From a virus (Duplodnaviria; Caudoviricetes), in IMG/VR virus record IMGVR_UViG_3300021560_000710, positions 1 to 27,057 of that record: a DNA stretch of 27,057 nucleotides; one strand, given 5' to 3'. This document shows positions 1-17,315 of this stretch, in pieces. The translations under genes and the position numbers were made by a program. Positions within the stretch are counted from its first letter, which is position 1. The number at the start of each line of letters is the position of its first letter. The notes beneath the pieces were generated by a model that was not told where the DNA came from, ran no database searches, and saw nothing but the letters and a program-made list of their open reading frames with translations.

Positions 1-663
1 CCGCAGACCGACGCGAGATATACCGGCCTGCAGGCCTGCGTATCGTCCACCCGCCAGATTCTACCGACCGGCGTGAGCGACGCGGGCGCGCTGACCAACA
101 CCAACACTTTCCAGCTGACCTTCTGGGATACCGCAGTGAGGACCGCCAAGTCGCTCACCAACGGTATCCGTCCCGTCAAAGTAAATGGCCGCGATTTGTA
201 TGTGGGCGTAATGCACCCCTCACAAGTCACGGATATGCGAACCAACACCTCGACCGGCCAGTGGCTTGACTTAGAGAAAGCGGCGTTAACTGGCGGTGAT
301 ATCGGTGACAACCCGATTTGGTGGAACGCACTCGGGATGTACCACGGCGTCCTGATGCATGAGTCCTCGCGCTGCACGAATTGCGTGGCCAACAACGGCG
401 CGGCGGTGGCGAACACCAAGCGCGCGTTGTTCTTGGGCGCGCAGGCCGCAGTGCTGGCCTTCGGTCGTGGCCAAGGTGAAGCGCAAAAATTCCGGTGGCT
501 GGAAGAGCTGCGCGATTTCGGCAGGCAGATCGGGATTGGTGTGAGCTGCATCTGGGGGATGGTCAAGGTCCAGTTCAATGCGCAGGACTTTGCCGACATG
601 GCAATCGACACCTACGGGATCGACATCGACCCGCTCGGAACCGCAGCGACCAACGCGCAGTAG
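1..663 (+). CDS. Major capsid protein, N4-gp56/DUF4043-like (5' partial)
   Basis: Frame is open from base 1 (PQTDARYTG...). Motifs IRPVKVNG, VMHPSQVTDMR, LGMYHGVLMHE, RALFLGAQA and W.EE..DFG match my recollection of this capsid family. Confidence 0.85.
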   Translation, partial: PQTDARYTGLQACVSSTRQILPTGVSDAGALTNTNTFQLTFWDTAVRTAKSLTNGIRPVKVNGRDLYVGVMHPSQVTDMRTNTSTGQWLDLEKAALTGGDIGDNPIWWNALGMYHGVLMHESSRCTNCVANNGAAVANTKRALFLGAQAAVLAFGRGQGEAQKFRWLEELRDFGRQIGIGVSCIWGMVKVQFNAQDFADMAIDTYGIDIDPLGTAATNAQ

Positions 664-1777: not shown

Positions 1778-2743
1778 ATGTCTCAGCTATGGCCTCAGAC
1801 TCAGCCCGACCAAAGAACCTTCGGGGCGCAGCAGGCGCGAACCCTCGATGACTTAAATCGCCCCCAGCTCCAAGGCATTGTCGCGACCTACCTGCAGGAC
1901 GCGATGCGCTACTGGCAGAGGCGCCCGTTCTTTTTCACTTCTGCCGATAACCAAGATCCCCTCGTGTGGACGGCCAGCGTCTTTGCCACGCAGGGCTGCA
2001 CCATCCAGTACACCGACCCGAGCGGGCAGGTCTGGAACTTCGTCGCGGCCAACGCGGGCACCACCGACTCGGCCACTCAGCCTAACTTTCAGGCTGCGAC
2101 CGCCTTCCAGTTCGTGACTCCGGTGAACTCGACCGGAGGCCCGCCGCCGATACCGCCTCCGACTGCGGGGTGGCCGGGGACGGTGGACGACAATGGCGGG
2201 CCCCCGAGCGGGATCAGATGGATCAACAATGGACCGATCATCGGGGGATATCACGCGAATCCTCAATTGAGCACTGTTTACGGGGTCAATGAGTACCAGC
2301 TCCCCATCGACCTGATAGCGTTCACCCGAGTGGAAGTGACGTGGGCCCGGACCATCCGGCTTGAGATGGCCCCGTACAGCTACAAGGAGCTGCGCGACTT
2401 TGACGTCATCCGGCCCACCCCGCCCACGACCTACCCAACGGCCTATGCCTATTACCGGGGGCACCTGTACATCTGGCCCTACCCGATAGCCCAGTACCCC
2501 ATAACCTTCAGCTATCGCTCGGCGCCGCCTATCGCCCAGAACGCCGCCGACACCAACATCTGGACGACGCAGGCCGAGGCCATGGTCAGGCACTACGCCG
2601 AGGGCCGCATCCTCGAGGCCGTCATCGGCGATCAGCAGAGCGCGGTGATGTGCTTCGACTTGGCTAACCAAGAGTTCTTGGACCTCCAGCAGCAAACCTC
2701 GCAGCGGGACGTGCGGGCCGGGATCCCGCCGAGCGACTGGTAA
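1778..2743 (+). CDS. Head-tail adaptor/head completion protein with an inserted domain
   Basis: N-terminal helical pair (DDLNRPQL...QDAMRYWQRRPFFF), TVYGVNEYQLP.D and PTAYAYYRGHLYIWPYP motifs are typical of podovirus adaptors; lies directly before the nozzle-like gene. Confidence 0.7.
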   Translation: MSQLWPQTQPDQRTFGAQQARTLDDLNRPQLQGIVATYLQDAMRYWQRRPFFFTSADNQDPLVWTASVFATQGCTIQYTDPSGQVWNFVAANAGTTDSATQPNFQAATAFQFVTPVNSTGGPPPIPPPTAGWPGTVDDNGGPPSGIRWINNGPIIGGYHANPQLSTVYGVNEYQLPIDLIAFTRVEVTWARTIRLEMAPYSYKELRDFDVIRPTPPTTYPTAYAYYRGHLYIWPYPIAQYPITFSYRSAPPIAQNAADTNIWTTQAEAMVRHYAEGRILEAVIGDQQSAVMCFDLANQEFLDLQQQTSQRDVRAGIPPSDW

Positions 2744-2746
2744 GCC

Positions 2747-4186
2747 ATGCCGATTCGCAAGCTGGGAAGTGGGCAGGAAGTCCCGTTTTTCGACTTCGCG
2801 CCCGACCTCAACCTGACCACGCCGGGGATCATCATGGACGCGTCCAACGCGATCCCGACCATCAAGGGGTATCGCGCACGCCAGAGTCCCCAGCAGGTCG
2901 CACCGGCCCTCCCGGCGACCGGCACCGGGGTGCAGGAGCCGCCACTGGGCGGCTATGTGGCGCTTTACTCGGACGGCTCGACGTCCGTCGTAGTGGGCAC
3001 CGCCACGCGCCTGTTCCGCCTCGTGTCCGGGGCGTGGACCCAGATAGGCAGTGGCTACACGGCCACCTTCCCGTGGGTTTTTAATCAGTTCGCCGACGAC
3101 GTCATCGCGACCTCGGCTGGCAACGCCCACATGCAGGTGGCCTCCGGGCCGACCGGCACCTTCGCCAACCTCCCCGATACGGGTGGCGGAACCCCGGCGG
3201 GCCCGCCGCTCAACGCGGCGACCGCCATCTCGGTGGCGGGATTCGAGGTCGCCTATCAAAAGAATCAATGGTGGAACAGCGCCGCCGGGAATGACGGGGT
3301 CTGGTCCCCGCCCGCGAGCGCCACGCAGGTGGCCTTCGGCTTCCTGTACGACTTCCCCGGCAACATCGTTGCGGCGGCGCCCCTGTTCAGAACCCAGCTC
3401 GTCTGGAAGCTCGGCTCGATGTTCCTGCTCACCTATGTCGGGGCGCCGCAGATCTGGTCGAGCCAGATCCTCTCGAGCATCACCGGCACTTGGGGTCAGG
3501 GTTGCGTCTGCCCGATGCCCACGGCGGTCGCATTCCTTGGAACCGATGATTTTTATATGTGCCAAGGCTCGGCCCCCTCGAGAATCCCGAATAGCCACAA
3601 GGAGTGGTTCTTTAATCAGGTCCACAAGGACGCCAACGGGAACCCCGACCAGCTCAACCTGACCTCGAGCTGGTTCGATCCCAACACCGCCACCTGTTAC
3701 TGGCATTACGTCTCGAACAACCCGCCCTTTCCCGGCGTCCCAGACCGCTACGTCGCTTGGAACTCGAGATCCGGGCGGTGGGCCCCCGGCTACCTGAACA
3801 GCCCCTTGGTCATCTGGAACACGCAGGCCGGGAAGCAGGCGGGCTTCTATTTCGACACCAACGGCGCGCTCCAGAGCTGGACCGGCGCGCCCAGCACCAT
3901 GTTCATCCTGACGGGCTATCAGGGGGACGCGGACAATTTAACCCAGCTCCAGAAAGTCCGGGTTTCCTACAACCAAGCCCAGCTCCCCACCGGCCAGATC
4001 CTCATCCCGATGCACACCTACAAGATGGGCGATTATCCGGTGGTGGACACCCCGGCCATCCTCGCCGCCGATGGCTGGTTCAACTTCCGGGCTACCGACC
4101 GTTACCACCAAGTCCAGCTCTCCACGACCGGGAGCTGCGAAATCATGGCGATGGCCTATGAAGGCCGCATCGCGGGGGTGCGTTAA
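2747..4186 (+). CDS. Tail nozzle / packaged-DNA stabilisation protein (P22 gp10-like)
   Basis: 479 aa with beta-propeller-like repeats and an N-terminal FFDFAPD...ASNAIPTIKGY motif; follows the adaptor gene. Confidence 0.65.
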   Translation: MPIRKLGSGQEVPFFDFAPDLNLTTPGIIMDASNAIPTIKGYRARQSPQQVAPALPATGTGVQEPPLGGYVALYSDGSTSVVVGTATRLFRLVSGAWTQIGSGYTATFPWVFNQFADDVIATSAGNAHMQVASGPTGTFANLPDTGGGTPAGPPLNAATAISVAGFEVAYQKNQWWNSAAGNDGVWSPPASATQVAFGFLYDFPGNIVAAAPLFRTQLVWKLGSMFLLTYVGAPQIWSSQILSSITGTWGQGCVCPMPTAVAFLGTDDFYMCQGSAPSRIPNSHKEWFFNQVHKDANGNPDQLNLTSSWFDPNTATCYWHYVSNNPPFPGVPDRYVAWNSRSGRWAPGYLNSPLVIWNTQAGKQAGFYFDTNGALQSWTGAPSTMFILTGYQGDADNLTQLQKVRVSYNQAQLPTGQILIPMHTYKMGDYPVVDTPAILAADGWFNFRATDRYHQVQLSTTGSCEIMAMAYEGRIAGVR

Positions 4187-4683
4187 TGCCGTACAGCACG
4201 ATGGACTACCAGCCGCCCTCGCTGCCCGAGATCCGGCAGATCAAGAGCTTTGACGAGGTGCGCAACGCCATCCAAGAAATCATGCAGTACCTCCAGCGGC
4301 TCGTGGCCGCTGACATGGCGTACTTCCAGCACCTCAAGCACAACGTCAACCACGCCTCCGTCGCCGAGGGCCCCCCGCTTCAGGCGGCGGCGACCATCAG
4401 CCCCTCGCACTTCATCCATGTGGTCGAGGGCACCGCGACCATCACGACCATCGAGCGACCGGCCAACTTCATCGGACACCTGCTGCTGATCTCTCAGGAC
4501 GGGCTCATGCTCGACCAAGGCGGAAATATCAAGCTCATCGAGCCGCCGAATTACCTGAAGCCGACCGGCCACATCAACCTGACCTATGTGCCCTCGATGG
4601 ACATCTGGGTGACTGATACCTGCCGGTTGCAAAACACCCCCACCACGATGCGGATCGGCGGGCGGACGGTGCAGACGACATGA
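4186..4683 (+). CDS. Putative short tail appendage/fibre anchor protein (no signal peptide)
   Basis: TAATG coupling to the nozzle gene; N-terminal amphipathic helix and a C-terminal beta domain (QAAATISPSHFIHVVEGTATITTI). Confidence 0.5.
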   Translation: MPYSTMDYQPPSLPEIRQIKSFDEVRNAIQEIMQYLQRLVAADMAYFQHLKHNVNHASVAEGPPLQAAATISPSHFIHVVEGTATITTIERPANFIGHLLLISQDGLMLDQGGNIKLIEPPNYLKPTGHINLTYVPSMDIWVTDTCRLQNTPTTMRIGGRTVQTT

Positions 4684-5120
4684 CAAGAATACTGGCAATC
4701 GCCGCAATTCTAACCTTGGTGGTCTGGGCGCTGACCGTGTGCATCGCAAGGGCGCAGACCAACGTGCAGGGCAATCAGCACACCACCGCAGGGACACTCG
4801 AGGGGAGCCACCAGTTCACCGGCAACAAGATGACCGGCCTCTCGGTAACGTGGCACTCGCAAGCATCCCGCTGGCTGATGATCTTCGACAGCCAGAGTCT
4901 CCCGGCCAACGGAACCTTCAACGCCCAGACCCCGCTCATCGTCTGCCAGTGGGTGCAGGGTGCAGGTAACCAGCCAGACGGCACCCTGAATTTTGACTGG
5001 AGCGCACATCCGGTCATTGTCCAGACCGGCCTGACGGTGGCGCTCAGCATCAACGCCGCCGCCTGCACGGCGCTGACCGTAGATGGGAACAACAACTGGT
5101 TTGCGGGGCAGATGCAATGA
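4680..5120 (+). CDS. Signal-peptide-bearing beta-rich protein (146 aa)
   Basis: ATGA overlap; begins MTRILAIAAILTLVVWALTVCIARA|Q; 2 Cys in the mature part. Confidence 0.7.
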   Translation: MTRILAIAAILTLVVWALTVCIARAQTNVQGNQHTTAGTLEGSHQFTGNKMTGLSVTWHSQASRWLMIFDSQSLPANGTFNAQTPLIVCQWVQGAGNQPDGTLNFDWSAHPVIVQTGLTVALSINAAACTALTVDGNNNWFAGQMQ

Positions 5121-7003
5121 CCGGAGCGCTGCTGGTCCTCCTGCTCTTTTTTTTCTGCGGGAACGCTCGCGCCCAGATCGTCACGCCGATCTCGGCAGCC
5201 CCCGCTCAGGCTGCGGTGAACGTGCCAAACGGCACCCCTCCGCAAGTTCTGGGCTGGTCAGCTCCAAACACCCCCGAAGCCGAGACAATCGTCGGTGATA
5301 TGACCCTCTCCCGCACTGGGGTGAACCAGTACACCGCCACCGTGCTGACGCTCAGCGGCACCCCGGTCGGCAACCTTGCGACCCTGAATGTCGGCTCGGG
5401 CTTCTCGACCGTGGGCGGGAGCCTCAACCTCTCCGTGCCCATTCCTGTGACCAGTGGTGGAGCTGGTTCGAGCACTGCTGCCAGCACGGGGGCCATCCGC
5501 ATCGCCCAGTCGGCGACCGATTATGAGCCGAAGATTTTGAGCGGGGACGCCACCGTTTCGGTGGCAGGAGTCGTGTCGGTGACCAAGGTCGCCGGGAACA
5601 CTCCCGGTGGTTCCTGCTCCGCGAATAACTACGTCACTTCAATCGACTCCAGTGGAAGACCGACTTGCAGCCCCGTCTCGGGGAACGGGATGCCCAACGG
5701 CAATACGCCTCAGATCGTTGGCTATTCGGGCATCAATACCGGCGAGGCGTGGACGGTGAGCGGTGGAGCGGGGAACTGCACATATGCCAGAACCGGGGCC
5801 AACGCCGCCACCCTGACGTGCTCCGGGTATGCCCCCTTGGCCTCACCGACCTTCACCGGCACGGTGACGATGCCGGATGCCGGGACGTGGACGAGCAGCG
5901 GCATTACCAGCACCGCTGCGACCTTCTCGGGGAATGTCGGGGCGGCGACGGTCAATGCGGCCAACTTCCAGATAAACAGCGGCACCGGCTCGCTCAAGGC
6001 CGCGAACGGAGCCATCTACTATCAGCCGGGATATTCGCTCCCTACCTACCCCGCGACTTGGGATATCAACGGACTGAACAATTTCGAGGGGCTGGGCATC
6101 GGGCAAGCGGTTGGGACAGACCCCATCGACATCACCGACAACATCGCCGGTCCCTCGTGGATCTATGCGCTGAATAACAACGCTGCTGGCACGGCGCTGG
6201 CCGGGGTGAAGTTGTCGAACGGAACCAACGCCGCATCATTCGCAATGATGGGAACGAGTGCCTCTAATCCGGAGGGTGGCGCCAACACGGCGGTACTCCA
6301 TTCCGATCAGGGCCTCAACCTTGCCGCGAATACTGGTCAACCCATCAAGTTTGAAATCAACGGCACCGTGGTGGGGAACTTCGCGGCCAACGGTCTGCAC
6401 CTGACCACGCCGCTTGAGGTTTACAGCGGCGGCACCGGCACTGCGACGGCACCCGCACAGAACCAGATCCTCGTCGCCCAGTCCGCGACTGCATACGCGC
6501 CGGTAACTCTCGCGGGCGATCTGAGTATCACGAGCACCGGCACGGCGACTGTAAACAAGATTCAGGGCTATCCCACCGGGACAGCCATCGCATGGACTCC
6601 GTATTTTGCGAACATCGGCACCGGGACCGCGATAACGGCCACCTACACCACGCAGGATGGCTTCTACGTTCAGATCGGGAAAATTGTCATCTGGACGATA
6701 CATTTGATGTGGTCGAGTTTTAGCGGTGGCAGTGGCAATACGGTGATCAGGGGATTCCCGCTCACGCTGGCGAGTGCTGGGGGTACGATGCCGGGGATAT
6801 CAGGGGCGGCGACCTATGGAGGCATCACATACTCAAGCGGCACGGGTGGCATCCCCGGCATGACAGAACTCGCCTGCCAGATGTCGGGCAACATGATCAT
6901 CTTGGGGGCCAGCGGCAGCGGTCAGGCGGGCAATCTCTCTCTCTCGTACAGCAATTTCGGGAACACGGGCGCGATCTATTGCTCAGGGATAGGTTCACTG
7001 TGA
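5117..7003 (+). CDS. Tail-fibre-like protein 1 with signal peptide (628 aa)
   Basis: Begins MTGALLVLLLFFFCGNARA|Q; fibre motifs YAPLASPTFTGT and PLEVYSGGTG; C-terminal WTP...YTTQDGFYVQIGK...GFP head domain. Confidence 0.8.
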   Translation: MTGALLVLLLFFFCGNARAQIVTPISAAPAQAAVNVPNGTPPQVLGWSAPNTPEAETIVGDMTLSRTGVNQYTATVLTLSGTPVGNLATLNVGSGFSTVGGSLNLSVPIPVTSGGAGSSTAASTGAIRIAQSATDYEPKILSGDATVSVAGVVSVTKVAGNTPGGSCSANNYVTSIDSSGRPTCSPVSGNGMPNGNTPQIVGYSGINTGEAWTVSGGAGNCTYARTGANAATLTCSGYAPLASPTFTGTVTMPDAGTWTSSGITSTAATFSGNVGAATVNAANFQINSGTGSLKAANGAIYYQPGYSLPTYPATWDINGLNNFEGLGIGQAVGTDPIDITDNIAGPSWIYALNNNAAGTALAGVKLSNGTNAASFAMMGTSASNPEGGANTAVLHSDQGLNLAANTGQPIKFEINGTVVGNFAANGLHLTTPLEVYSGGTGTATAPAQNQILVAQSATAYAPVTLAGDLSITSTGTATVNKIQGYPTGTAIAWTPYFANIGTGTAITATYTTQDGFYVQIGKIVIWTIHLMWSSFSGGSGNTVIRGFPLTLASAGGTMPGISGAATYGGITYSSGTGGIPGMTELACQMSGNMIILGASGSGQAGNLSLSYSNFGNTGAIYCSGIGSL

Positions 7004-9654
7004 TCAAGCGACTGATTCTATTTTTGCTGATACTCGGCTACTCCCCGGTTGTCTTCGCGCAGATCGTCACTCCCGGCGGGGGCAACACTGGAGCTGGTCA
7101 GATTACTGGCGGTTCCTGCACGGGTGGGCAATTCCAGAACGGGATGAATACCAACGGCACGCCCCAGTGCGCGACCGTCACGGGCGGCTCGGGCTACCCT
7201 CCCGGTGCCCCAGCGCAGATAGGCGGGTTCGCGGCGACCAACACGTCAGAGGCAGAAACCGTTGGAGGAGATGCGACCTACACGCGAGCGTCAGCGAACA
7301 ACTACACCCTCACGGTGACCAAGACCAACGGCTCGCTGCTCACGGGCATGGCGACTGCGGCGATCCCCTTGAGCATCCTCAATGGCGGCACGGGGATCAC
7401 GACCGCCCCGAGCGCCGGTCAACTACTCATCGGCCAGACCGCGACGACCTATGGACCAAAGACACTCTCAGGAGACGCGACCATCAACTCGTCAGGCGTC
7501 ATCTCAGTGGCGACGGTGGCTGGGGTTGCGCCGGGGCCACTTTACAGCGTGGCGTCTCCACTTCCGGTTGCGAATGGCGGAACTGGACTCAACACCGCAA
7601 CCGCAGCAGGCGACATTCCGGTCGCGCAGACTGCGACCAGCTACCTGATGAAGGCTCTCAGCGGTGACGCAACCATGACGCTGGCCGGGGTTGTGACGGT
7701 CACCAAGATCAACGGGATCACCCCCGGCGGTGTCTGTGGAGGTGGTCAATTCGCCTCGACGATTTCGAGTTCAGGAGTGCCGACTTGCACCACGCCGGGG
7801 GCTTCGGTTCCTGCCGGAACGCTGCCGCAGTTTGTTGGCTATGCGGGCGTGAACACGGGTGAGGCAGAAACACTTTCTGGTGATGCAACCCTGACTCGGG
7901 CCTCGGCGGGCAGCTACACCATCGCGGTCACCAAGACTGGGGGTGTTGCGTTCACTGGCCTAGCGACTGCTGCTATCCCGCTTTCAATTGCCAATGGTGG
8001 TCTGGGCAACACCACCGCTCCGTCTGCGGGCATGATCGATATTGCCCAGTCCGCAACCCTGATCCAGCCCAAGGCACTTTCCGGCGATGCGACCATAACC
8101 AGCGCTGGCGCGATCACCGTAACCAAGACGAACGGCACCGCATTCGGTGCGGCGGCGACTCTGGGAGTCGGTACGAATCTGGCCTCCAGCGGCGGTAACA
8201 TCAACCTCGCCTCGCCGGTCAACAATCTCACCACCAGCGGCACATTGACTTTCCCTGACGGAGCAACAGCCATCGCGCAGGGTCTTTCCAATTTGACTCA
8301 CCTCGCCGTTGGGGCCGCAACCCCCAACGGTGCGTTCAAGGCTGGGCAAGCCGATGCACTAGCCGTCTACAGCCCCGGTGGTACGAGCTTCAGCGCTGGT
8401 CTTGGGGGAGTCTTCGACGGTTGGCTCAGCACCGCCAGCCCGCCGGTCGCGGGAGGCAATATCACTTGGGGCATGTACAACAACGGCACCAATTGGCTCG
8501 CCACTGCCAAGAACATCGATCACATGGCGGTCAACACGGGTGAGATCGGCTGGTTCATGTACGAGAACCAGACGGTGGGGTCAGCGCCCACTAGCTATGT
8601 TCAATACATGGCCCTGCGCGACTCCAGTGCGGGCAGCGGACAGGGACTGTTTCTCACCCAAGGTCAGTTCATTGCCACCAGCGCCAGCGGCGGGACGGGA
8701 GCGGGCGGGCTGTGTATCGGCTGCACTTCCGCATCCACTGACGACATCACCGTCAACGAGAATTTCAACGGTGGAGCGCGCATAGTCACCCAGAACTCCA
8801 GTCACGGGACAAGCTCGCAGGCGCTGGTCAGCGTAATAAACGACAACGGCGTGATAGGCGGGTTCGGAGTCACTGGACATAGCTCTACGTTTGGCGGTTC
8901 CTACCCACCGGACACGGTTTACTGGAACGGCTCTGGCACCAACACCCTGAACATGGCGATTGCTGCGGGCGGGGCTATCCCCAACGGGCAAATTTCTATC
9001 TGGCCCTCCGGTTACGGAGCGTCAGCATTTCTGGTCCGTGCCAACCAGTTTGAGGGCTTGTCCGTATGCGGGTACGCAGGGATGTTTTGTACTGCGAATG
9101 TCGCCGGTCTGGGCGTGGGCAATAGCTATTTATCGGCGCAGACCTTCGCCAACCTAAATATCAGTGGCGGTGCCTACTTCAACGACGGCACGGGGCAGTG
9201 GGTTACAGACGGCGGCGCGGGCAATGGAGTTGGACTAGCTTCGCAAGTCGCTAGTGGTTGGTCGTTCTACACCAGTCCGGGTGGTGCGGCGGGGGTAAAC
9301 GTAGCGTGGACGCGACAAGGACTTTACGACGGCAACGGCTTTCACGTCACTAATATTATGACGGACGGTGGTTCTGCCGCCCCCACCTTTACCAATTGCG
9401 GGCCAATGGCCGGGAGCAGAGATTCCTTCGGCTATTGTAACGTCTCGGCTTGGCCGATCACGATAACCTTCTCTCGCCCGTTCAGCAGCGGCGTCAATAT
9501 AGGCTGTGTTGCAAACGGCGGGGCGGGATCATCGGGACTGCTCTACACCCTCAACCAGAACAATGGCAGCATCCAAATCGGTTGTGTCAACTATGCTGGT
9601 GGTCCCGTGTGCGGTGGGATGTGGATTCAATATATGTGTTTCGGAGTGGGGTGA
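7000..9654 (+). CDS. Tail-fibre-like protein 2 with signal peptide (884 aa)
   Basis: Start reassigned to GTG 7000 (GTGA overlap): MIKRLILFLLILGYSPVVFA|Q. Repeated PLSI.NGG.G and LSGDAT motifs; Cys-rich C-terminal domain. Confidence 0.8.
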   Translation: MIKRLILFLLILGYSPVVFAQIVTPGGGNTGAGQITGGSCTGGQFQNGMNTNGTPQCATVTGGSGYPPGAPAQIGGFAATNTSEAETVGGDATYTRASANNYTLTVTKTNGSLLTGMATAAIPLSILNGGTGITTAPSAGQLLIGQTATTYGPKTLSGDATINSSGVISVATVAGVAPGPLYSVASPLPVANGGTGLNTATAAGDIPVAQTATSYLMKALSGDATMTLAGVVTVTKINGITPGGVCGGGQFASTISSSGVPTCTTPGASVPAGTLPQFVGYAGVNTGEAETLSGDATLTRASAGSYTIAVTKTGGVAFTGLATAAIPLSIANGGLGNTTAPSAGMIDIAQSATLIQPKALSGDATITSAGAITVTKTNGTAFGAAATLGVGTNLASSGGNINLASPVNNLTTSGTLTFPDGATAIAQGLSNLTHLAVGAATPNGAFKAGQADALAVYSPGGTSFSAGLGGVFDGWLSTASPPVAGGNITWGMYNNGTNWLATAKNIDHMAVNTGEIGWFMYENQTVGSAPTSYVQYMALRDSSAGSGQGLFLTQGQFIATSASGGTGAGGLCIGCTSASTDDITVNENFNGGARIVTQNSSHGTSSQALVSVINDNGVIGGFGVTGHSSTFGGSYPPDTVYWNGSGTNTLNMAIAAGGAIPNGQISIWPSGYGASAFLVRANQFEGLSVCGYAGMFCTANVAGLGVGNSYLSAQTFANLNISGGAYFNDGTGQWVTDGGAGNGVGLASQVASGWSFYTSPGGAAGVNVAWTRQGLYDGNGFHVTNIMTDGGSAAPTFTNCGPMAGSRDSFGYCNVSAWPITITFSRPFSSGVNIGCVANGGAGSSGLLYTLNQNNGSIQIGCVNYAGGPVCGGMWIQYMCFGVG

Positions 9655-9890
9655 TGAGAATACTCATCTTGCTGGGAGTGTGCCTGTTGCTGGCTGGGCT
9701 GGCGTATGCCCAATTGCAGTCGCAACCTCTGGCAGTGCCGGGGCAGAAGTCGAGCAGCAATATGCCGATTATGGCCTCGCCCTATCCGACTATCACCCCC
9801 AGCCCCGTGCCAACCCCACCACCACCGGGATGGGAGCGGGCTAATCCACCAATGTCCGGTCCCTCGCCGTGGGGTACGCCTGTACCATGA
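9654..9890 (+). CDS. Small Pro/Thr-rich secreted protein (78 aa)
   Basis: Start ATG 9654 (TGATG coupling, GGAG RBS): MRILILLGVCLLLAGLAYA|Q. Confidence 0.7.
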   Translation: MRILILLGVCLLLAGLAYAQLQSQPLAVPGQKSSSNMPIMASPYPTITPSPVPTPPPPGWERANPPMSGPSPWGTPVP

Positions 9891-11191
9891 GGAAGCTATT
9901 TGCACTGCTGGCGTTCCTGCTCTGGCCGACCCTGAGCTGGGGCGCGGGCTGCACCATCACGGGACAGGTCTTTAATCCGGACGGTACACCCTTGGTGAAC
10001 GGGACCGTCCAGTTCAACTCCATCGTCCAGCAGACCCTGCAGGGCAACGTCACCATTCCGCCGACCCAGATCTCCACCACCACCGACTCGACCGGGACCA
10101 TGAAGCCCATCTCCATCGTGCAGGGCCTTCAGGGTCAGTTCGTCTTTTGCTCCCCGGCCCAAGGCGGCTGCGGGAACCCGACCCCGGTCCTCATCCCGGT
10201 CGCCTCGACCGCCAACATCTCGGCCATCCTCATCGGCATCCAGCTCTCGAGCGGCGGCAACGTCGTTGCCAGCTCTTTAAACGTGACCGGGAACTCCACC
10301 ATGGGTGGAACCCTAACCGTGACCGGCCAAACGTCTCTGGGGGCACTTACGGCCTCGGGAGCCACTATCCTGCAGAGCACCTTGGCGGTCACCGGAGCCG
10401 CAGGCTTCTCGACCATCACCGCCAGTGGGACTTCTACCCTTGCCGGGGTGACGGCCAGCTCGCTCAATGTCTCCGGAGCCAGTTCGCTGACCACTCTGGG
10501 GGTTACCGGGGCGACCACGCTGGCCGGGGCGACGGCCACCTCCCTGACCGTCAGCGGGCCGGGACAGTTCACCAGCCTCGGAATCGGAGCTGCCCCGGTC
10601 TGGTCGCTGGACGTTCAGGTCAACCAGAACGCGGCCACCAAGGCCCATGTCCTGAATAACAGCTCGGGCACCGGAGCTGCCTCGATGCTCGAGGCCGACA
10701 ACGGGGGCTGCGTGACGGATGTCGGGGTCTTCGGGACCGGAGCCACCCCGAGCGGGTCGCCCTTCTATGTGGCCAACCGCAACTTCCTGTTGGGTGGATG
10801 CGGCCCCGGCCTCCTGATTCAGGCCTCCGGGCCCAGCTCGATGCTCTACCTGTCGGCCCCCAACGGCAACAACGTGGACGTCTTGGGGAATAACCACTTC
10901 GGCATTTCCCGCAATGGCGTGGGTCCGGGCCCCACCGTCAGCGCATGCGGGACCAGTCCCAGCGTGACCGGCACCTCAACCGACAATGCCGGAATCGTCA
11001 CCGTGGGCAGCAGCGTCTCCAACTGCACCATCACCTTTGCCGCAGGCTTTCCGAATATCCCGGCCTGCACCTGTTCCACCGTAAACATCGGGACGTGGTG
11101 CGTGGCCAACCCGAGCACCAGCGGACTCAGCCTGACCTTCGGCACGGCTATAACTGGCAATGCCAGTTGGGTATGTATGGCCCTATTATGA
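9887..11191 (+). CDS. Tail-fibre-like protein 3 with signal peptide (434 aa)
   Basis: Start ATG 9887 (ATGA): MRKLFALLAFLLWPTLSWG|A. ITGQVFNPDGTP N-domain resembling lambda Stf-type fibre N-termini; L.VTG.T.L beta-helix-like repeats. Confidence 0.8.
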   Translation: MRKLFALLAFLLWPTLSWGAGCTITGQVFNPDGTPLVNGTVQFNSIVQQTLQGNVTIPPTQISTTTDSTGTMKPISIVQGLQGQFVFCSPAQGGCGNPTPVLIPVASTANISAILIGIQLSSGGNVVASSLNVTGNSTMGGTLTVTGQTSLGALTASGATILQSTLAVTGAAGFSTITASGTSTLAGVTASSLNVSGASSLTTLGVTGATTLAGATATSLTVSGPGQFTSLGIGAAPVWSLDVQVNQNAATKAHVLNNSSGTGAASMLEADNGGCVTDVGVFGTGATPSGSPFYVANRNFLLGGCGPGLLIQASGPSSMLYLSAPNGNNVDVLGNNHFGISRNGVGPGPTVSACGTSPSVTGTSTDNAGIVTVGSSVSNCTITFAAGFPNIPACTCSTVNIGTWCVANPSTSGLSLTFGTAITGNASWVCMALL

Positions 11192-11439
11192 AAACTCTCG
11201 CCCTAGTTCTCTGGATACTCTGCTCTGCAGTCGCGGCCTATGCGCAGGCTGCTCCACCCCAGATTCAGCAGCCACCCACGGCGGCAGACCTCGAGCAGCA
11301 GCTCGAGGCGGTCGGTTGCAAGGCCGAGCGGCAGGCGGCAGCGAGCACCATCGTGCAGCTTCAGAAGCAGAACCAAGATCTCCAGAAGCAGATCACCGCG
11401 AAGGATCCGCCACCCAAGTCGGGAGCAACCAAGCATTGA
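11188..11439 (+). CDS. Small secreted coiled-coil protein (83 aa)
   Basis: Start ATG 11188 (ATGA): MKTLALVLWILCSAVAAYA|Q; heptad pattern IVQLQKQNQDLQKQI. Confidence 0.7.
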   Translation: MKTLALVLWILCSAVAAYAQAAPPQIQQPPTAADLEQQLEAVGCKAERQAAASTIVQLQKQNQDLQKQITAKDPPPKSGATKH

Positions 11440-13505
11440 AGAGCTGGCTCTGGATTCCGCTGGCGTTCTTGTTGATGGGGCAGGCCACGCCCACGGCCAC
11501 CCCCACCCCGACTGGACCCACGATGTGCAGCGTCACCGGGAGCGTCGTCAACGCCGACGGAAGCCCGTTCGTCAACGGTGTCATTACCTTCAATAGCAAG
11601 AACATTCAGGTCATCAACGGAGTCCCGGTAAACCCGACCAACGTCACCACCAACACCGACGCCAGCGGGGTTATCCGGGCTATCTCGCTCCCGCAGGGCC
11701 TCGTGGTGCAGGTGACGGTGTGCCCCCCGGCGCAAGGTCAGGGTCAGCCCGCGAACTGCTCGGCCCCGTTCTCGGCCTTCATCCCGTTCAGCACGAGCGC
11801 CAGCTTCGGCAACTTGTCGCAGGGCACCTCGCTGTCGCCGCCCAACCCTCCCGGCTCTGCACCGCAACTCATCGGCTATAACGCCAGCAACGCGGTGACC
11901 GCAGCGACCCTTGGAGGCGACATCAGCCTCGCTGGGATTGCCCCGACGTATACGGCCACCGTGCTCAAGCTCAACGGCCAGACCCCCGGCGGGGCGTGCC
12001 CTGCCAATCAGTTCACGAGTGCAATCTCAACAAGCGGAGTGCCCACTTGTTCCGCGCCTGCGGGGAGTAGCATACCGACCGGACCCTTTCAGACCCTGCA
12101 ATCTAACGCATCGAATGCGTCGGTGTGGAATAGCAACATCGCCATTGGTATGCCCGTGGCGACCCCCACCGCTGGGCAGAACACTGCGCTCCAGATCGCG
12201 TCTGCTGGGTCTACTACATGGGCGGGAACCTCTTACACCAACAACGGCGGCGTCAATAACCAAGCAAATGCATGGGGCGTGAAGAACCCGCCGCTGACAT
12301 CAGGCACCGGCCTTTATGCAGCGTATTACGCCAATTACTGCGACCCCGCACTGGGGAACGCTTGCACAGGCCCCAACGATTTCTACATGGTGATGCAGGC
12401 CAACGGGGCGGGATCGACCATAGCGACACCGTTGTCGGCAGAGCTTCAGACCGTCGCTCCCGCCGGTTTGCAGATCAACAATCTCGCTGCCAACAGCAAG
12501 CTGAGTATATACAGTGGGGGTTTGATCACAATCACCCCCAGCGGTGGGGCGCAACTGGCACAGTGGCGCACGGGCGGGTTGGACATCGGCAGCACCACGG
12601 TCGGGGCTGATGCGATAGATGTGACCGGGGCCGGATCATCTGAACTCATTTACGTTAAAAACACCGGCACCAGCACCACTGGTCAGGCCGGATTCGGCGC
12701 GACCAATAATGTCAGCGGCGTTAACCTCTGGCTCAATCAAACCGGCCCCAATTACACAGGCAGCACCGTGGGACCGAATACCGGCTACCTGTACGCGGAT
12801 CGCGGGCTGGCGCTGCTTTCCGGCCAGAACGACGGCTCGCCCATAACCATGTGGGTCGCAGGCGCCAAGATGGGAACTCTGAGCAACACGGGCGGGTACG
12901 ATGAACTGATGTTCACTGGTGGCGGAATAAATTCCGGCGCGATGCCCAACATGAACTACGTCGCCGGGGCGCACGTCAACGCCGCTGGGAGCTGGCTGGC
13001 GGATGCGACCAGCGCGAATATCATCAATGAGTACAGCGCGACCATCGGGTTCTATGCAGACACAGGCCTCACTGCGGCCAGCACCTTTTCGCCAACCCTG
13101 CGAGCAAAAATTGATTCCGCTTGGAATGAAGTCACTTTCACTCCAGTGCTTTCGTTCGGTGGGGGCAGTGTGGGCATCGTCTACACGAGTCAGGGTGGAG
13201 AGTGCTGGAGTTTTTCAAGATTCGCCTACTGCGAAGGTGTAGTCACTCTTTCCAGCAAGGGAACCTCCACAGGTAACGTCAAAATCTGCAATCTGCCCCT
13301 TATTCCCAGTGGCGCTGGCTGGATGGGTGGAACGGTGAATTACTTCTACGGATTCACCGGCTTCTTGGGTACGCCGACGTTAATAACCAACAGCGATGGT
13401 TGCGTACAAGTCGGTCAGGGCAATCCGAATGGGTTCGTCGCTGCTACTGATGCCAACTTTACGGCCACCTCAAACTTCCAGTTTTCAGTCTACTTCGTTC
13501 AATGA
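11436..13505 (+). CDS. Tail-fibre-like protein 4 with signal peptide (689 aa)
   Basis: Start reassigned to TTG 11436 (TTGA overlap, GGGAG upstream): MKSWLWIPLAFLLMG|QATPTATPTPT. N-domain paralogous to fibre 3; C-domain (FTPVLSFGG...YTSQGG...NLP) paralogous to fibre 1. Confidence 0.8.
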   Translation: MKSWLWIPLAFLLMGQATPTATPTPTGPTMCSVTGSVVNADGSPFVNGVITFNSKNIQVINGVPVNPTNVTTNTDASGVIRAISLPQGLVVQVTVCPPAQGQGQPANCSAPFSAFIPFSTSASFGNLSQGTSLSPPNPPGSAPQLIGYNASNAVTAATLGGDISLAGIAPTYTATVLKLNGQTPGGACPANQFTSAISTSGVPTCSAPAGSSIPTGPFQTLQSNASNASVWNSNIAIGMPVATPTAGQNTALQIASAGSTTWAGTSYTNNGGVNNQANAWGVKNPPLTSGTGLYAAYYANYCDPALGNACTGPNDFYMVMQANGAGSTIATPLSAELQTVAPAGLQINNLAANSKLSIYSGGLITITPSGGAQLAQWRTGGLDIGSTTVGADAIDVTGAGSSELIYVKNTGTSTTGQAGFGATNNVSGVNLWLNQTGPNYTGSTVGPNTGYLYADRGLALLSGQNDGSPITMWVAGAKMGTLSNTGGYDELMFTGGGINSGAMPNMNYVAGAHVNAAGSWLADATSANIINEYSATIGFYADTGLTAASTFSPTLRAKIDSAWNEVTFTPVLSFGGGSVGIVYTSQGGECWSFSRFAYCEGVVTLSSKGTSTGNVKICNLPLIPSGAGWMGGTVNYFYGFTGFLGTPTLITNSDGCVQVGQGNPNGFVAATDANFTATSNFQFSVYFVQ

Positions 13506-13690
13506 AACTCGCATTCGCAATTGCACTCACGCTGCTCGCGGCTGTCGCCTACGCGCAGTCGAGCGCCACTCCGACGCCAGCTCCAATGTGGGCGCAACCG
13601 ACTGCCACCCCGACAGCAGGACCGGCGGTGACGCCCAGTCCGCTACCAGCACCACCATTGCCGTGGGCTAGCCCTGCAACCAAGAGGTGA
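13502..13690 (+). CDS. Small Pro/Thr-rich secreted protein (62 aa)
   Basis: ATGA overlap; begins MKLAFAIALTLLAAVAYA|Q. Confidence 0.7.
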   Translation: MKLAFAIALTLLAAVAYAQSSATPTPAPMWAQPTATPTAGPAVTPSPLPAPPLPWASPATKR

Positions 13691-13693
13691 ACT

Positions 13694-13984
13694 ATGGGAA
13701 CGATCCCGACTACGACGCTGCCTAAGGTCCAAGGCGAAAACGACGCCTCGGCGGTGCTGCGCTTCGACACCAGCGCCCGCTTCTACCTCGGCCTCTTCAT
13801 CATCCTGCAGTTCGTCCTGCTCATCGCCTATATCGTTTATCGCGGCGCGGCCCTGCCCGACAGCCAGCTCATCCTCGGCGCGGAAATCGGCTTTGTCTCT
13901 GTGGTCTTGCAGTATTTTTTCGGGAGTTCATCCGGCTCCGTTACCAAGTCCGCAAAGGAGGGGCCGACGCCACCACCTAAGTGA
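13694..13984 (+). CDS. Putative holin (two transmembrane segments)
   Basis: GAGGTG RBS; two hydrophobic segments; the VLQYFFGSSSGS motif is common in phage holin-like proteins. Confidence 0.6.
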   Translation: MGTIPTTTLPKVQGENDASAVLRFDTSARFYLGLFIILQFVLLIAYIVYRGAALPDSQLILGAEIGFVSVVLQYFFGSSSGSVTKSAKEGPTPPPK

Positions 13985-14313
13985 GCGACGAGCTAGAACT
14001 CGCCGCGAAGGAACCATGGTGGGCGAAAGCACCCGCATACTTAGCCGTGGCAATAGTGGGCGTGCCTTCCGCGATTGCCTTGGCGGCGGGCTGGTTCATC
14101 GCGAACAACGTGACCTATCGGCTCAAGCTGCTGGAGACTTACGACTTGTCGATCCTGAGCACGCTGAGTCAGATGAGTACCAAGAGCAACCAAGATATCG
14201 ACTCACTGGAGGGGTTCATGCGCGCGACCTTGCGGGCGGCGCAGCAGAACTGCCTCAACAACGCCAAGACCGTTGAGCAGCAGCACAAGTGCGTGCAGGT
14301 TCCGGACCCGTAA
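13981..14313 (+). CDS. Single-TM membrane protein (possible lysis accessory)
   Basis: GTGA overlap, AAGGAGG upstream; one long hydrophobic segment; C-terminal Cys pair (C-x12-C). Confidence 0.6.
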   Translation: MSDELELAAKEPWWAKAPAYLAVAIVGVPSAIALAAGWFIANNVTYRLKLLETYDLSILSTLSQMSTKSNQDIDSLEGFMRATLRAAQQNCLNNAKTVEQQHKCVQVPDP

Positions 14314-14397: not shown

Positions 14398-14598
14398 TTA
14401 TCGAGACGAGACGACTCTCAGGTGGCGGGTTGCCTTCTTCTTTGGATACCATTTCTTTCGCCAGTGCGATCTGACTATGTAGGCACGCACCCGGATGTCG
14501 TCACTGCGCTTTTTGCCTACCATAGGCTCGAGCAAGTCCTCGAGCGTGCTGGTTATCGACCGGCCCCCCTTGCCGTCAATGATGTCCTGTAAAATCAT
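14398..14598 (-). CDS. Hypothetical basic protein (66 aa)
   Basis: ATGA coupling to the upstream minus-strand gene. Confidence 0.5.
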   Translation of the reverse strand: MILQDIIDGKGGRSITSTLEDLLEPMVGKKRSDDIRVRAYIVRSHWRKKWYPKKKATRHLRVVSSR

Positions 14599-14999
14599 CG
14601 TTTGGTCTGGTCCTCGATTAGATCGAGATTAGGCATCTTTCCCTTTTCTTTTAACTCGGTGAGCTGGGGCACCGCGAACTCACCAAAGGTCTGCCCGCTC
14701 GGAAGGACGATGTAGGGCAAGAACTCGGTTTCAAAGCTCGTGATCTTGCTCTCCACCGCTTCGAGCTTGGCCTTGATGGTGAGGCAGAGCGCTCGCCAGC
14801 GCTGGCGCTGGTCCTGCTCGTTCTTGTTGGGCAGGGGCAGGACGAAGCGGACCATCCAGTTCGACACCCGGAACTGGACCATCGCGCGGCTGTCGGCCAT
14901 AGCCGTACCAAACTGGTCCGCCTTGTACCGCTGGAGGATCTGCTCGATCTCCATCCGACTCTTCGCGATGGGAACCTTGGTGCGCGAGGCGTATCTCAC
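14595..14999 (-). CDS. Conserved phage hypothetical protein (134 aa)
   Basis: Start GTG 14999 overlaps the RusA TAG, with a GGGAG RBS. Motifs YA..T.V...KSR.EIE and RQRWRAL.L.IKAKLEAV...I.SFE.EFL recur in phages. Confidence 0.75.
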   Translation of the reverse strand: MRYASRTKVPIAKSRMEIEQILQRYKADQFGTAMADSRAMVQFRVSNWMVRFVLPLPNKNEQDQRQRWRALCLTIKAKLEAVESKITSFETEFLPYIVLPSGQTFGEFAVPQLTELKEKGKMPNLDLIEDQTKR

Positions 15000-15490
15000 T
15001 AGAGCAGCTCCCTTTGTCCCTCGATGGCGGGCTGTGCCGCGAGCGGATAGGCGCGCTCGTTCACCTCGATCTCGACCCGTGGCCTTTCTGAGTACCACTT
15101 GCCGATATTGAGTTGGACTATCTGCGCGTCATCGAGCCACGCCACCCCGGTCAGGGAATCACAAATGCTCTTGCTGTAGTTATCCGCGTCTGGCCGCGTG
15201 GTCGGTCGGATGGTCCCGTTGAGTGCCCACGCCTGCTTGGCCTTGGACATCGACTTGGGCACTGGCAGGTAAACCCGGATGTCCACCTCGAGCATCCCCG
15301 CCAGCGGGGGCTTGCCCTTCATCTGGGTAATGGCCAGCTGCTTGGCGGTGATCTGCCACTTCCTGACTTCCGCCGGGGTGTACATCGAGACGTGATGGCG
15401 CTTGCGCAGGGCCATCGGAAGGGGAGGGACAATAGCCCCTTGAGGTGGCCGCTGCGCTTGCGCGAACCCGTCGATGCATATCCGGATCAG
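14999..15490 (-). CDS. rusA: RusA family Holliday junction resolvase
   Basis: RPDADNYSKSICDSLTGVAWLDDAQIV and K.YSERPRVEI motifs. Probable CTG start at 15490 (the ORF track starts at ATG 15415). Confidence 0.9.
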   Translation of the reverse strand: MIRICIDGFAQAQRPPQGAIVPPLPMALRKRHHVSMYTPAEVRKWQITAKQLAITQMKGKPPLAGMLEVDIRVYLPVPKSMSKAKQAWALNGTIRPTTRPDADNYSKSICDSLTGVAWLDDAQIVQLNIGKWYSERPRVEIEVNERAYPLAAQPAIEGQRELL

Positions 15491-15735
15491 AGCTGTAGCC
15501 TCCAGCGCTCGTGGATCTCACGCAGTCGGGTCCGGTGAACGTCGCCGAGGGGTGCTTCGGGCGATGCGGAGGCTCCGTTGCCGTGGGTTGGCACCAGCAG
15601 CAGCACTATTTCCGCCATTAGTGCCAGATCCTTGCCCAGCTCGTGCGCCGCCTGCAGTGCGGTCTTCAGCTGCTCTTTTTTCTTGCTGGACTTCTTCTTT
15701 GCGGGCTTCTTGGTTGGCTTTTGCTTCTTCGGCAC
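15487..15735 (-). CDS. Lys-rich hypothetical protein overlapping the nuclease 3' end
   Basis: GTG start after GAGAGAG; its TGA overlaps the proposed RusA start. Confidence 0.45.
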   Translation of the reverse strand: MPKKQKPTKKPAKKKSSKKKEQLKTALQAAHELGKDLALMAEIVLLLVPTHGNGASASPEAPLGDVHRTRLREIHERWRLQL

Positions 15736-16693: not shown

Positions 16694-17100
16694 GGTTTCC
16701 ACACTTCCTGCCGGTTGCCGGTCCCGGCCTTCTTGGATTTGACGAGCCCCTCTTCCTCGAGCTTGTTCATCGCGGAGTATACCGCCGCGTAGCCGTGGCC
16801 CACCGCCTTGGCTTTCTCAATGATTTTTGCCTTGGGGGTCGGCTTGTTCGAGATATGCCTCAAGAGCCACGGCTTGAGCTGGTCCTTGGTCCCGTTGGGG
16901 CTGCTTTCGAGTACGCGGCTCAAGGCGCTGCCCAGCACCTCGCGCGCCAGCGTGATCGTTCCGATGTGCTGCGCCGCTGCGGCCTGCCGCTTGGGATCCA
17001 GAGCGAGGCGGGCGAGGCCGTCCTCGGGCACCAGCTTGGTCAGGAGCGCGTCGAGCGCAAGCAGCTCGCGCCTCAGTTCCTGTTGGTTCTCAGGGGTCAC
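16690..17100 (-). CDS. Hypothetical protein with a possible C-terminal winged HTH
   Basis: Coupled on both sides; KAKIIEKAKAVGHGYAAVYSAMNKLEEEGLV pattern. Confidence 0.6.
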   Translation of the reverse strand: MTPENQQELRRELLALDALLTKLVPEDGLARLALDPKRQAAAAQHIGTITLAREVLGSALSRVLESSPNGTKDQLKPWLLRHISNKPTPKAKIIEKAKAVGHGYAAVYSAMNKLEEEGLVKSKKAGTGNRQEVWKP

Positions 17101-17315
17101 GCCTTTGCGCTCCTTCGGTTGTCATATTCCGCTGGCGGATAAAGGTCGGGGCGCAATCTGTATCGTGGCACCTTGGTCAACCGCTCGAGTTCAAGCACCC
17201 GTGTTGGTGGGGTCCGTTTCCATTTCTGGACTGCTTGATAAGGGATTCCCATTAGCCGACCTAGCGCCACCAGCCCGCCCGCCCGCTTCACCGCCTCCTG
17301 TAACGCTGCGTCCAT
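17097..17315 (-). CDS. Cro/YdaS-like HTH regulator
   Basis: A...AGG..ALG..MGI.YQAV.KW...P..RV..LE..T.V.R..LRPDLY signature. Confidence 0.88.
   Translation of the reverse strand: MDAALQEAVKRAGGLVALGRLMGIPYQAVQKWKRTPPTRVLELERLTKVPRYRLRPDLYPPAEYDNRRSAKA

Follow-up and report, generated by a model that had tools for sequence, protein, structure and literature searches.

Tailed phages are taught as assembling wholly in the cytoplasm, and the fibres of SU10-type phages are taken as cytoplasmic and signal-less. P22 tailspikes and T4 fibres attach in vitro to finished particles. In filamentous phages, the virion surface protein pIII is produced in an extracytoplasmic compartment and joins late, and inoviruses are extruded via membrane-anchored assembly without lysis. 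Rotavirus VP7 is also a virion surface protein from an extracytoplasmic compartment that is added late (available part of PMC13011347). Both pIII and VP7 are functional analogues only; neither is from a tailed phage, and rotavirus is a eukaryotic RNA virus. The Bdellovibrio MAT proteins carry, after the signal, a beta-rich domain that is conserved and ~130 aa long (available part of PMC10769870), and in A-1(L) gp82N joins the neck fibre to the neck (available part of PMC10966104).

The DNA analysed here, referred to as the window, is a stretch of 27,057 nucleotides from a soil phage of the short-tailed kind. Among sequencing runs, no RNA run is listed as containing it, and one DNA run that does may be its source. 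It resembles SU10-type tail machines in that an adaptor (PF24175) is followed by a nozzle-like gene; the podovirus type is predicted from genes, and portal, terminase, ejection-like, and lysis genes are present in a relative, G001. The window differs from SU10-type machines in that all four fibres carry predicted export signals. These fibres lie in a tail-appendage block (4680-13690, + strand) of eight coupled ORFs that are overlap-coupled to the nozzle and anchor genes within the late operon. The fibres are likely to be exported by Sec, to fold and oxidise outside the cytoplasm, and to dock on finished virions at lysis. An earlier note on this DNA knew of no described system like this, and no exported fibres of a tailed phage are described in the largely open-access literature that was searched. 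The features are as follows.

73..663, +, major capsid protein without signal, truncated by the window start to its C-terminal part; PF13252 E 2.3e-32, phrog_334 E 4.2e-34
1778..2743, +, tail adaptor, SU10-type, no signal; PF24175 39.3 bits, cut-off 27
2747..4186, +, tail nozzle (probable) without signal; match to phrog_3287 ('virion structural protein') at E 2.6e-28, weak tblastn match to 'putative noozle protein' E 5e-6
4186..4683, +, 165-aa signal-less 'anchor' ORF with an N-terminal helix and a small beta domain; conserved position after the nozzle
4680..5120, +, 146-aa small beta-rich protein, predicted exported (signal rule), Cys pair
5117..7003, +, 628-aa fibre, predicted exported, without docking N-domain; alignment A4, structure model, tip fold
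7000..9654, +, 884-aa fibre, predicted exported, 14 Cys, without docking N-domain; shaft paralogous to 5117
9654..9890, +, 78-aa Pro/Thr-rich peptide (28% Pro+Thr), predicted exported (signal rule), no lipobox
9887..11191, +, 434-aa fibre, predicted exported, docking-type N-domain directly after the signal (fold prediction), 11 Cys
11188..11439, +, 83-aa coiled-coil-like protein, predicted exported, one conserved Cys; orthologues
11436..13505, +, 689-aa fibre, predicted exported, with Pro/Thr linker, docking-type N-domain, shared shaft repeat, and 5117-family tip (homology)
13502..13690, +, 62-aa Pro/Thr-rich peptide (34% Pro+Thr), predicted exported (signal rule), no lipobox
13694..13984, +, 96-aa membrane protein with a hydrophobic segment from residue 26, putatively holin-like (size and position); 82% identity to the G001 gene adjoining the G001 endolysin
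13981..14313, +, 110-aa protein with a single TM segment (hydrophobic from residue 17), last in the late operon, possibly lysis-related; 63% identity to a gene in the G001 lysis region

Predicted signal peptides of the tail-appendage block

The overlap with the preceding stop is 4 bases at seven of the ORF junctions and 1 base at the eighth (9654), and two of the starts are non-ATG (TTG at 11436 and GTG at 7000). Longer starts at 6979, 9450, 9869, 10945, and 11160 were rejected because they overlap upstream genes and the orthologues begin at the overlap position. Signals were scored with a home-made rule, not SignalP, that asks for an 8-residue uncharged core with a mean Kyte-Doolittle value of at least 2.3, a non-negative n-region, and small residues at -3 and -1. 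The thresholds were chosen with these ORFs in view and the test is therefore not blind. The eight coupled signal-peptide ORFs that the earlier note had described are all present and all meet the rule (8/8), and none of the 34 called genes outside the block does, which agrees with the description of the capsid block, adaptor, nozzle, and 4186-4683 ORF as signal-free. As background, the rule is also passed by 44 of 2356 internal positions and by 243 of 4000 shuffles of whole proteins. The n-region is basic in seven ORFs, as had been noted, and the exception is 5117 (MTG). The small-residue cleavage sites also stand as listed by start (4680 ARA, 5117 ARA, 7000 VFA, 9654 AYA, 9887 SWG, 11188 AYA, 11436 LMG, 13502 AYA), except that LMG/Q of 11436 is the weakest site and the rule places the cut at GQA/T. 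The 11436 signal is the weakest of the block, and its orthologues in L002 and L015 have clearer signals. With cleavage at the sites proposed in the note, Gln would be the first residue of seven of the eight mature chains. A regex scan of 17 ORFs revealed neither a lipobox nor a Tat (twin-arginine) motif. At the starts set by the stop/start overlaps the eight block ORFs match the sequence pattern of Sec/SPase I substrates, and the proteins would be translocated, cleaved, and disulphide-bonded.

The signals are conserved. In two relatives seven of eight block ORFs meet the rule, compared to 5/89 genes outside the block in G001 and 3/94 in G002, and the single failure in each block is a start truncated by the gene caller. 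Full-length orthologues of 5117 meet it in 14 of 15 cases, the remaining one being a start-truncated record, and none of the 144 nozzle homologues that start with Met does. At least 90% of the rows in the 5117 alignment (A4) share Ala at -3 and -1 and Gln at +1. This conservation argues against the hydrophobic N-termini staying uncut and tethering the fibres to the cytoplasmic membrane face during ordinary assembly, a reading that is highly unlikely although the 5117 n-region has no basic residue and export is itself a prediction here. By the positive-inside rule the basic n-regions imply an N-in/C-out orientation, and Cys content tracks the presence of a signal, both of which speak against tethers. 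The identity of leader and mature parts (0.47 vs 0.60) was set aside as evidence, the split at 'AQ' being circular.

The earlier note had described the entire tail-fibre module as apparently Sec-exported. As a prediction this holds for the eight block ORFs; however, the signal-less ORF at 4186-4683 probably belongs to the module, and half of the predicted-exported ORFs (4680, 9654, 11188, and 13502) are small non-fibre proteins. The anchor ORF lies immediately 3' of the nozzle in signal-bearing and signal-less relatives and is kept in all close relatives. It matches no Pfam or PHROG family, and in the ESM Atlas it has viral clusters as its only neighbours, one of which features the T4 gp9/10 N-terminal family (0.92, a lead only); it is probably a cytoplasmic proximal fibre or fibre dock. 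Orthologues of 4680 with a signal are found in L002, L015, L018, L063, L014, and L006, and ESM Atlas places the protein near unnamed viral clusters at 0.92-0.93 with recognition beneath the tool's mark; a possible role, at the level of a guess, is a decoration or fibre-base subunit. Peptides like 9654 are present in L017, L099, and L100. The 11188 protein, with signal-bearing orthologues in L002, L015, and L017 and similar ORFs in L099, L100, and L120, could be guessed to be a fibre chaperone. Spanins were considered for 9654, 11188, and 13502 and rejected, as the Pro-rich partner has no lipobox and AYA/Q sites are present instead.

Fibre shafts, tips, and the docking-type N-domain

The 5117, 7000, 9887, and 11436 ORFs are fibres. 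Fibre motifs had been reported in four ORFs; ASPTFTG and P[LI]x[IV]xxGGxG occur only in 5117 and 7000, and the other two are fibres on other evidence. Pfam and PHROG searches with the eight block ORFs, whole or in pieces, gave nothing above the cut-off (best phrog_29288, unknown function, E 4.3e-5), and PDB sequence searches with the A3 and A4 alignments gave weak, unrelated-looking matches only (apolipoprotein, Rab7). The 5117 protein features a repeat shaft with Cys loops, a beta-helix-like middle, and a receptor-binding-type tip; across A4 the shaft is conserved in its repeats and Cys loops and the tip is variable. The structure check that had been proposed was run on a monomer model (pLDDT 60.8), and its predicted tip (residues 461-609) is of the tailspike type, matching the C-terminal domain of Dettilon tailspike gp208 with Z 12.9 and NMV_189 with Z 13.0. 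The 11436 tip matches the 5117 tip family by HMM (E 6e-14), so that a repeat shaft with a variable C-terminal binding-type tip is present in both. The 7000 protein is paralogous to 5117 (E 3.7e-30), and over residues 115-528 it shares 32% identity (E 3e-27) with an 818-aa fibre of G008 (P0172) that has no signal and carries PF13884. Profile searches with the tips of 7000 and 9887 found no family.

For the mature N-terminus of 9887, and for that of 11436 by homology, a virion-docking-type fold like that of lambda Stf and gp82N is predicted. The 9887 N-domain was modelled with a pLDDT of 84.7, and the best eight Foldseek rows are all phage neck or tail-fibre chains. The VIA Z scores are 11.1 for A-1(L) gp82N (8keg_a), 10.9 for lambda Stf-N (9e7m_Ta), and 10.2 for the Bxb1 and XM1 fibre bases, and the next is 8.4. 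The likeness to these four (Z 10.2-11.1) is one of predicted fold; the window N-domain is 14-16% identical to them and differs in being preceded by a signal peptide. The 11436 N-domain is 40% identical to that of 9887. The top match of a PDB profile search is 9e7m_Ta (E 0.069), and PF08400, the Stf N-domain family, is found in 4/20 N-domain members at E<=0.1 (best 0.0027), compared to 10/20 for PF13620. Secreted bacterial proteins have domains of similar fold as well, namely pilin and carboxypeptidase-regulatory domains (Z 6-8), and a likeness to pili is remarked on in the available part of the A-1(L) paper (PMC10966104). Signals precede the N-domain in 35 of 39 homologues, a count biased by a search that left out short stand-alone domains (five weak bacterial rows of 44 were omitted, and one row is the window's own protein). 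Two of the four fibres, 5117 and 7000, do not have a docking domain.

The pilin likeness bears on whether the exported fibres are adhesins or receptor blockers on the host surface, like Bdellovibrio MATs or morons, with the short cytoplasmic anchor as the only virion fibre. The MATs are signal-bearing, phage-fibre-like trimers on the bacterial surface, and their layout of signal peptide, N-terminal beta domain, mosaic shafts, and variable tips resembles that of the window fibres (available part of PMC10769870). The best Foldseek match of 5117 is the Bdellovibrio fibre Bd2133 (E 8.2e-5), but with an rmsd of 16 and a TMq of 0.16, and VIA gives a Z of 5.3 over 105 residues. In contrast to the window genes, which sit in a phage late operon, MAT genes are chromosomal and encode predator cell-surface proteins (available part of PMC10769870), and Pfam finds no S74 match in the window's fibres. 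Phage-borne adhesins that are membrane-anchored (trimeric autotransporters, lipoprotein morons) differ as well, since the window proteins feature no lipobox and no C-terminal anchor, either as a Pfam anchor family or as a C-terminal hydrophobic 19-mer. Further points against surface adhesins are the overlap coupling to nozzle and anchor, the absence of an integrase family among the 69 G001 genes scanned, and sister phages that retain the N-domain without a signal. Of the two interpretations offered in the earlier note, secreted adhesins or blockers are thus weakened and unlikely. Folding outside the cytoplasm with joining at or after membrane disruption is better supported, because the docking N-domain is kept, signal-less orthologues occur in sister phages, there is no membrane anchor, and G001 has no other recognisable fibre gene.

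Relatives, signal loss, and cysteines

A search of related phages for the same block, as the earlier note had suggested, found 13 of 20 loci signal-bearing, 4 signal-less, 1 mixed, and 2 uninformative. A signal-bearing ORF follows the anchor in 20 of 30 further loci, and among the distant nozzle relatives scanned the genes at the fibre position are mostly signal-less. In the nozzle tree the signal-less group L022/L023/L025/L027 falls within the signal-bearing rows (100/99 with L018, 96/96 with L012); a nozzle tree need not follow the history of the fibre block. This sister group has the same docking domain, homologous shafts, and fewer cysteines. The N-domain without a signal lies beside the same anchor gene in L022, L023, L024, L025, and L027, and an extra Cys pair that is present in most signal-bearing N-domain members is absent from the five signal-less ones. 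The median Cys content per 100 aa is 1.38 in 26 signal-bearing proteins and 0.52 in 11 signal-less proteins, with a p of 0.0015 that is overstated because the proteins counted are related. The signal-bearing proteins of L026 are nearly Cys-free (0-1 Cys), and disulphides are therefore not the sole reason for export. Two of the window fibres have an odd Cys count (11). Two Cys-rich ORFs with signals are still present elsewhere in G008, which belongs to the signal-less group.

G001 is near-complete, with ends that meet within the nozzle. From its nozzle to its lysis genes the anchor is the only signal-less called gene, barring one start-truncated call. Among its 69 genes of at least 75 aa that were scanned, portal, terminase, capsid, and endolysin families and ejection-like and lysis genes were found, and no fibre, integrase, tape-measure, tube, or sheath family. 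The lack of another fibre gene is a soft negative because PHROG recognises none of these fibres either. The exported proteins might instead be freed at lysis as matrix-binding or matrix-degrading helpers or decoys that never enter the particle. In some relatives the block is long and varied (G002, 15 kb), beyond the apparent needs of a short tail, and it is not evident where in a virion the two Pro/Thr peptides would sit. Such a role may apply to some block members. As an account of the whole block it is quite unlikely, since it leaves unexplained both the retained docking-type domain and a near-complete G001 without another recognisable fibre.

A proposed two-compartment assembly

For Sec-exported fibres that dock at lysis, the following route is proposed. 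The head, adaptor, nozzle, and short anchor protein would be made in the cytoplasm, and the four fibres and four small partners would pass through the host Sec translocon and be cut by signal peptidase I. The exported proteins would then fold and form disulphides beyond the inner membrane. Once lysis opens this membrane, finished particles would encounter the folded fibres and docking would proceed via the lambda-Stf/gp82N-like N-domain of 9887 and 11436; 5117 and 7000, which have no docking domain, would hang on 9887/11436 or on the small subunits. The same sequence evidence would fit export with docking organised before lysis, in which particles are retained at the inner membrane, or moved through it, and mature at that site. 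That variant is rather improbable: the adaptor, nozzle, and anchor are signal-less here, relatives have ordinary endolysin and holin-like genes, and no extrusion machinery was identified in G001, most of whose genes have no family. More generally, it is on balance favoured that the construction of tailed phages can be divided between two compartments, with a cytoplasmic head and tail core and exported fibres or decorations joined at lysis, and that the route is evolutionarily switchable, one nested lineage having returned the docking domain and related shafts to the cytoplasm with signals and cysteines lost together.

If this is true, infectivity would hinge on the host's Sec and signal peptidase and, probably, on its disulphide or glycosylation systems, and the final assembly step would be coupled to lysis. 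The added host dependence would be a possible target of anti-phage defence, and this would offer an explanation for annotation missing such fibres or giving them wrong starts. Within the clade the same docking domain exists both with and without a signal, which makes for a natural comparison.

Cultured phages feature the same pattern, and the claim is therefore testable now. In Tunturiibacter phage Tunturi_1, gp12-17 meet the signal rule and are consecutive, Cys-rich, and in the tail module; the Tunturi paper makes no mention of signal peptides in its text or supplement. In Cellulophaga phages, phi10:1 gp091-094 and phi18:3 gp087 meet the rule and are annotated in GenBank as 'structural protein, MS/MS', with the caveat that MS/MS of virion preparations can pick up co-purifying proteins. 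The phi10:1 gp091-095 and phi18:3 gp087 genes resemble the window block as signal-bearing tail-module genes in a consecutive run, but unlike the window fibres the proteins are Cys-poor. By blastp the proteins of these three phages have no similarity to window proteins at E<=0.01. INPHARED holds no close cultured relative; the best nozzle matches are 22-26% identical and the fibre match is a short low-complexity stretch. Among genome contigs the sole match consists entirely of phage sequence and is binned in a Ca. Acidiferrales MAG, and the nozzle is found in one of the 401 genomes searched of that MAG's phylum, namely the same MAG.

Gene layout of the record

The record is linear, with 27,057 bases and a completeness estimate of 45%. 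The whole stretch was found in one sequencing run, a soil metagenome, which may be the source of the window, and weak evidence for an Acidobacteriota host comes from a relative whose contig, phage throughout, was binned into an Acidobacteriota MAG.

Left part, late operon: capsid protein (PF13252), three small ORFs, SU10-type adaptor (PF24175), nozzle-like gene (phrog_3287)
Late operon, continued: 165-aa signal-less ORF (4186-4683, the anchor), eight ORFs of the block (4680-13690), two membrane proteins
Right part: RusA, RecT, primase/helicase-like gene, small early genes

G001, a long relative syntenic with the window, is probably near-complete, against an estimate of 67%, because its two ends carry nozzle residues 1-43 and 45-479. 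PHROG searches of its 69 genes of at least 75 aa identified portal, terminase, capsid, a weak ejection-protein match and an endolysin located after the block; fibre, tape-measure and integrase families were not found among these genes, which is a soft negative for another fibre because PHROG also misses the block fibres. Between nozzle and lysis genes, both G001 and a second long relative, G002, have a single gene that truly lacks a signal, the anchor. Window 13694-14313 features both membrane genes that flank the G001 endolysin, without an endolysin between them, and the endolysin may be encoded in the portion of the genome that the record lacks. A 271-aa signal-less early-region protein with a Gly-rich linker (window 21323-22138, +) has 42% identity to G001 41820-42617 and is kin to a G001 gene beside the endolysin; Pfam and PHROG scans gave no family for it.

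Predicted signal peptides of the block and its relatives

The block ORFs start at the preceding stops, with seven 4-base overlaps and one 1-base overlap, and all eight feature signal-peptide-like N-termini, from which lipobox and Tat motif are absent. The run of eight signal-peptide ORFs described in the earlier note is borne out by a home-made rule (hydrophobic 8-residue core, non-negative n-region, small residues at -3/-1), which has thresholds chosen with the block ORFs in view and is passed by 8/8 block genes versus 0/34 other called window genes; as a background, 44 of the 2356 internal positions and 243 of the 4000 shuffled proteins passed as well. The rule is passed by 7/8 block genes versus 5/89 others in G001 and by 7/8 versus 3/94 in G002, the single block miss being a truncated start each time, and by 0/144 nozzle homologues. 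Homologues of 5117 pass in 23 of 30 cases (full-length orthologues, 14 of 15), and the orthologues have nearly invariant Ala at -3 and -1 and Gln at +1. The signal-bearing block is real and clade-wide, and it is very improbable that its N-termini serve as uncleaved cytoplasmic tethers.

Among 20 post-nozzle loci, 13 are signal-bearing (counting the window, and L019 from its open frame), 4 are signal-less, 1 is mixed and 2 end too early. A signal-bearing ORF follows the anchor in 20 of 30 further metagenome loci; of the other 10, 5 are cut short or lack the true start and 5 have distant nozzles. Some of the loci are near-copies. The signal-less anchor, of 140-170 aa, is kept in all close relatives. 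At 26 distant-nozzle loci the genes at the fibre position are signal-less, L031 and L062 excepted. L031, L062 and L136, a lineage whose nozzle is distant (24% identity), share the anchor family, and their signal-bearing proteins after the anchor start with Thr-Ala repeats, which are suggestive of glycosylated linkers.

Loci L022, L023, L025, L027 and L024 have the same docking-type N-terminal domain (N-domain) as window fibres 9887 and 11436, without a leader. In a nozzle tree of 27 rows the first four are grouped (88/82) and nested beside signal-bearing L018 (100/99) and L012 (96/96), and the signal label changes 3 times versus a shuffled mean of 8.4; given a midpoint root this pattern reads as loss of signals, with the proviso that fibre genes may not track the nozzle. 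Window shafts are homologous to a signal-less fibre of this group, with 32% identity (E 3e-27) over residues 115-528 of ORF 7000. In G008, which belongs to the signal-less fibre group, two signal-bearing Cys-rich ORFs (2-1252 and 1523-2647, -) are located far from the tail genes.

Signals are linked to cysteine, with 1.38 Cys per 100 residues in 26 signal-bearing versus 0.52 in 11 signal-less proteins, all of them hand-picked ORFs that follow the anchor and are at least about 250 aa long. L026 is a counter-example to this trend, having signals yet being nearly Cys-free. Its region 14551-17236 encodes two fibres that have signals and the docking N-domain and are free of Cys; PF13884, the S74 chaperone family, is present in their close homologues. 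Bdellovibrio MATs likewise combine signal, fibre and S74 chaperone. The block proteins might be cell-surface adhesins resembling MATs (PMC10769870), which we consider unlikely.

Other arrangements were observed among the relatives. At L017:16018-19118 and L120:5112-8211 the fibre block lies between the nozzle and the capsid gene, and the adaptor follows the capsid block. Three signal-less ORFs lie between anchor and signal-bearing block at four loci; one, of ~100 aa, resembles an acyl carrier protein as judged by eye from its motif, and another, of 212-220 aa, contains Cys. Small signal-bearing Cys-containing proteins, possibly exported capsid decorations, occur among head/portal genes outside the fibre block, and a conserved ~430-aa gene, with no PHROG family in G001, lies immediately upstream of a scaffold-like gene in head clusters.

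Three extra signal-less ORFs: L063:12269-13550 (G006:C39 37841-39125); L101:4467-5809; L102; L121
Head/portal-region signal-bearing ORFs: L010:12336-12758; L012:6587-7423; G003 11670-12110 and 20312-21370; G006:C39 24039-24677
~430-aa head-cluster gene: G001 5546-6841; G002 36898-38175; G006:C39 28935-30230

Fibre folds and the proposed route

The earlier note took the entire block for a fibre module; this holds for four fibre ORFs (5117, 7000, 9887 and 11436), the other four (4680, the coiled-coil-like 11188 and the Pro/Thr-rich 9654 and 13502) being small non-fibre proteins, and the fibre motifs it placed in four ORFs were located in two. Shaft repeats are common to 5117, 7000 and 11436, and the N-domain to 9887 and 11436. 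The N-domain model (pLDDT 84.7) gave phage neck or tail-fibre chains in all top eight Foldseek rows, and an independent structural aligner gave Z 11.1 for A-1(L) 8keg_a, 10.9 for lambda 9e7m_Ta and 10.2 for Bxb1 and XM1, followed by 8.4; viral matches with names are mostly tail fibres. Sequence support is weak, with PF08400 in 4/20 members and PF13620 in 10/20 at E<=0.1. According to the A-1(L) report (PMC10966104), the matching domain fastens the neck fibre to the neck, and its authors pointed out a likeness to a pilus component. A model of mediocre quality was obtained for 5117 (pLDDT 60.8); the tip aligns best with NMV_189 (Z 13.0) and with the gp208 tailspike of Dettilon, in its C-terminal domain (Z 12.9), and the next match falls to 6.2. 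In 5117 orthologues the shaft is kept and the tip exchanged; the 11436 tip is of the same family (E 6e-14), and family searches gave no assignment for the 7000 and 9887 tips. That the block proteins are free factors released from the cell is improbable.

The signals with their conservation, the gene context, the predicted folds and the link to cysteine are observations, and the route built on them is an inference. We consider it fairly probable that the fibres would be exported by Sec with cleavage of their leaders, would fold beyond the inner membrane, forming disulphides, and, with the breaching of this membrane at lysis, would dock on particles, the anchor being by position the obvious putative docking partner. 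Late attachment is workable outside the cell, as in P22 and T4 in vitro assembly. An organised maturation at the membrane before lysis is also improbable. The kind of particle is known; what would be new is the route by which it is made, which was found described for no tailed phage within an incomplete coverage of the literature.

Parallels in cultured phages

Tunturi_1 and the Cellulophaga phages phi10:1 and phi18:3 are analogues, not orthologues, because their proteins have no sequence similarity to window proteins. In Tunturi_1, a podovirus infecting Acidobacteriota, the adaptor-position gene is followed by six signal-bearing genes in a row, an annotated tail spike among them, and the paper describing this phage (PMC11924767) makes no mention of signal peptides. 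The phi10:1 proteins gp091-094 and phi18:3 gp087 pass the signal rule and are noted in GenBank as structural proteins detected by MS/MS, and the other MS/MS-noted Cellulophaga phage proteins translated fail it.
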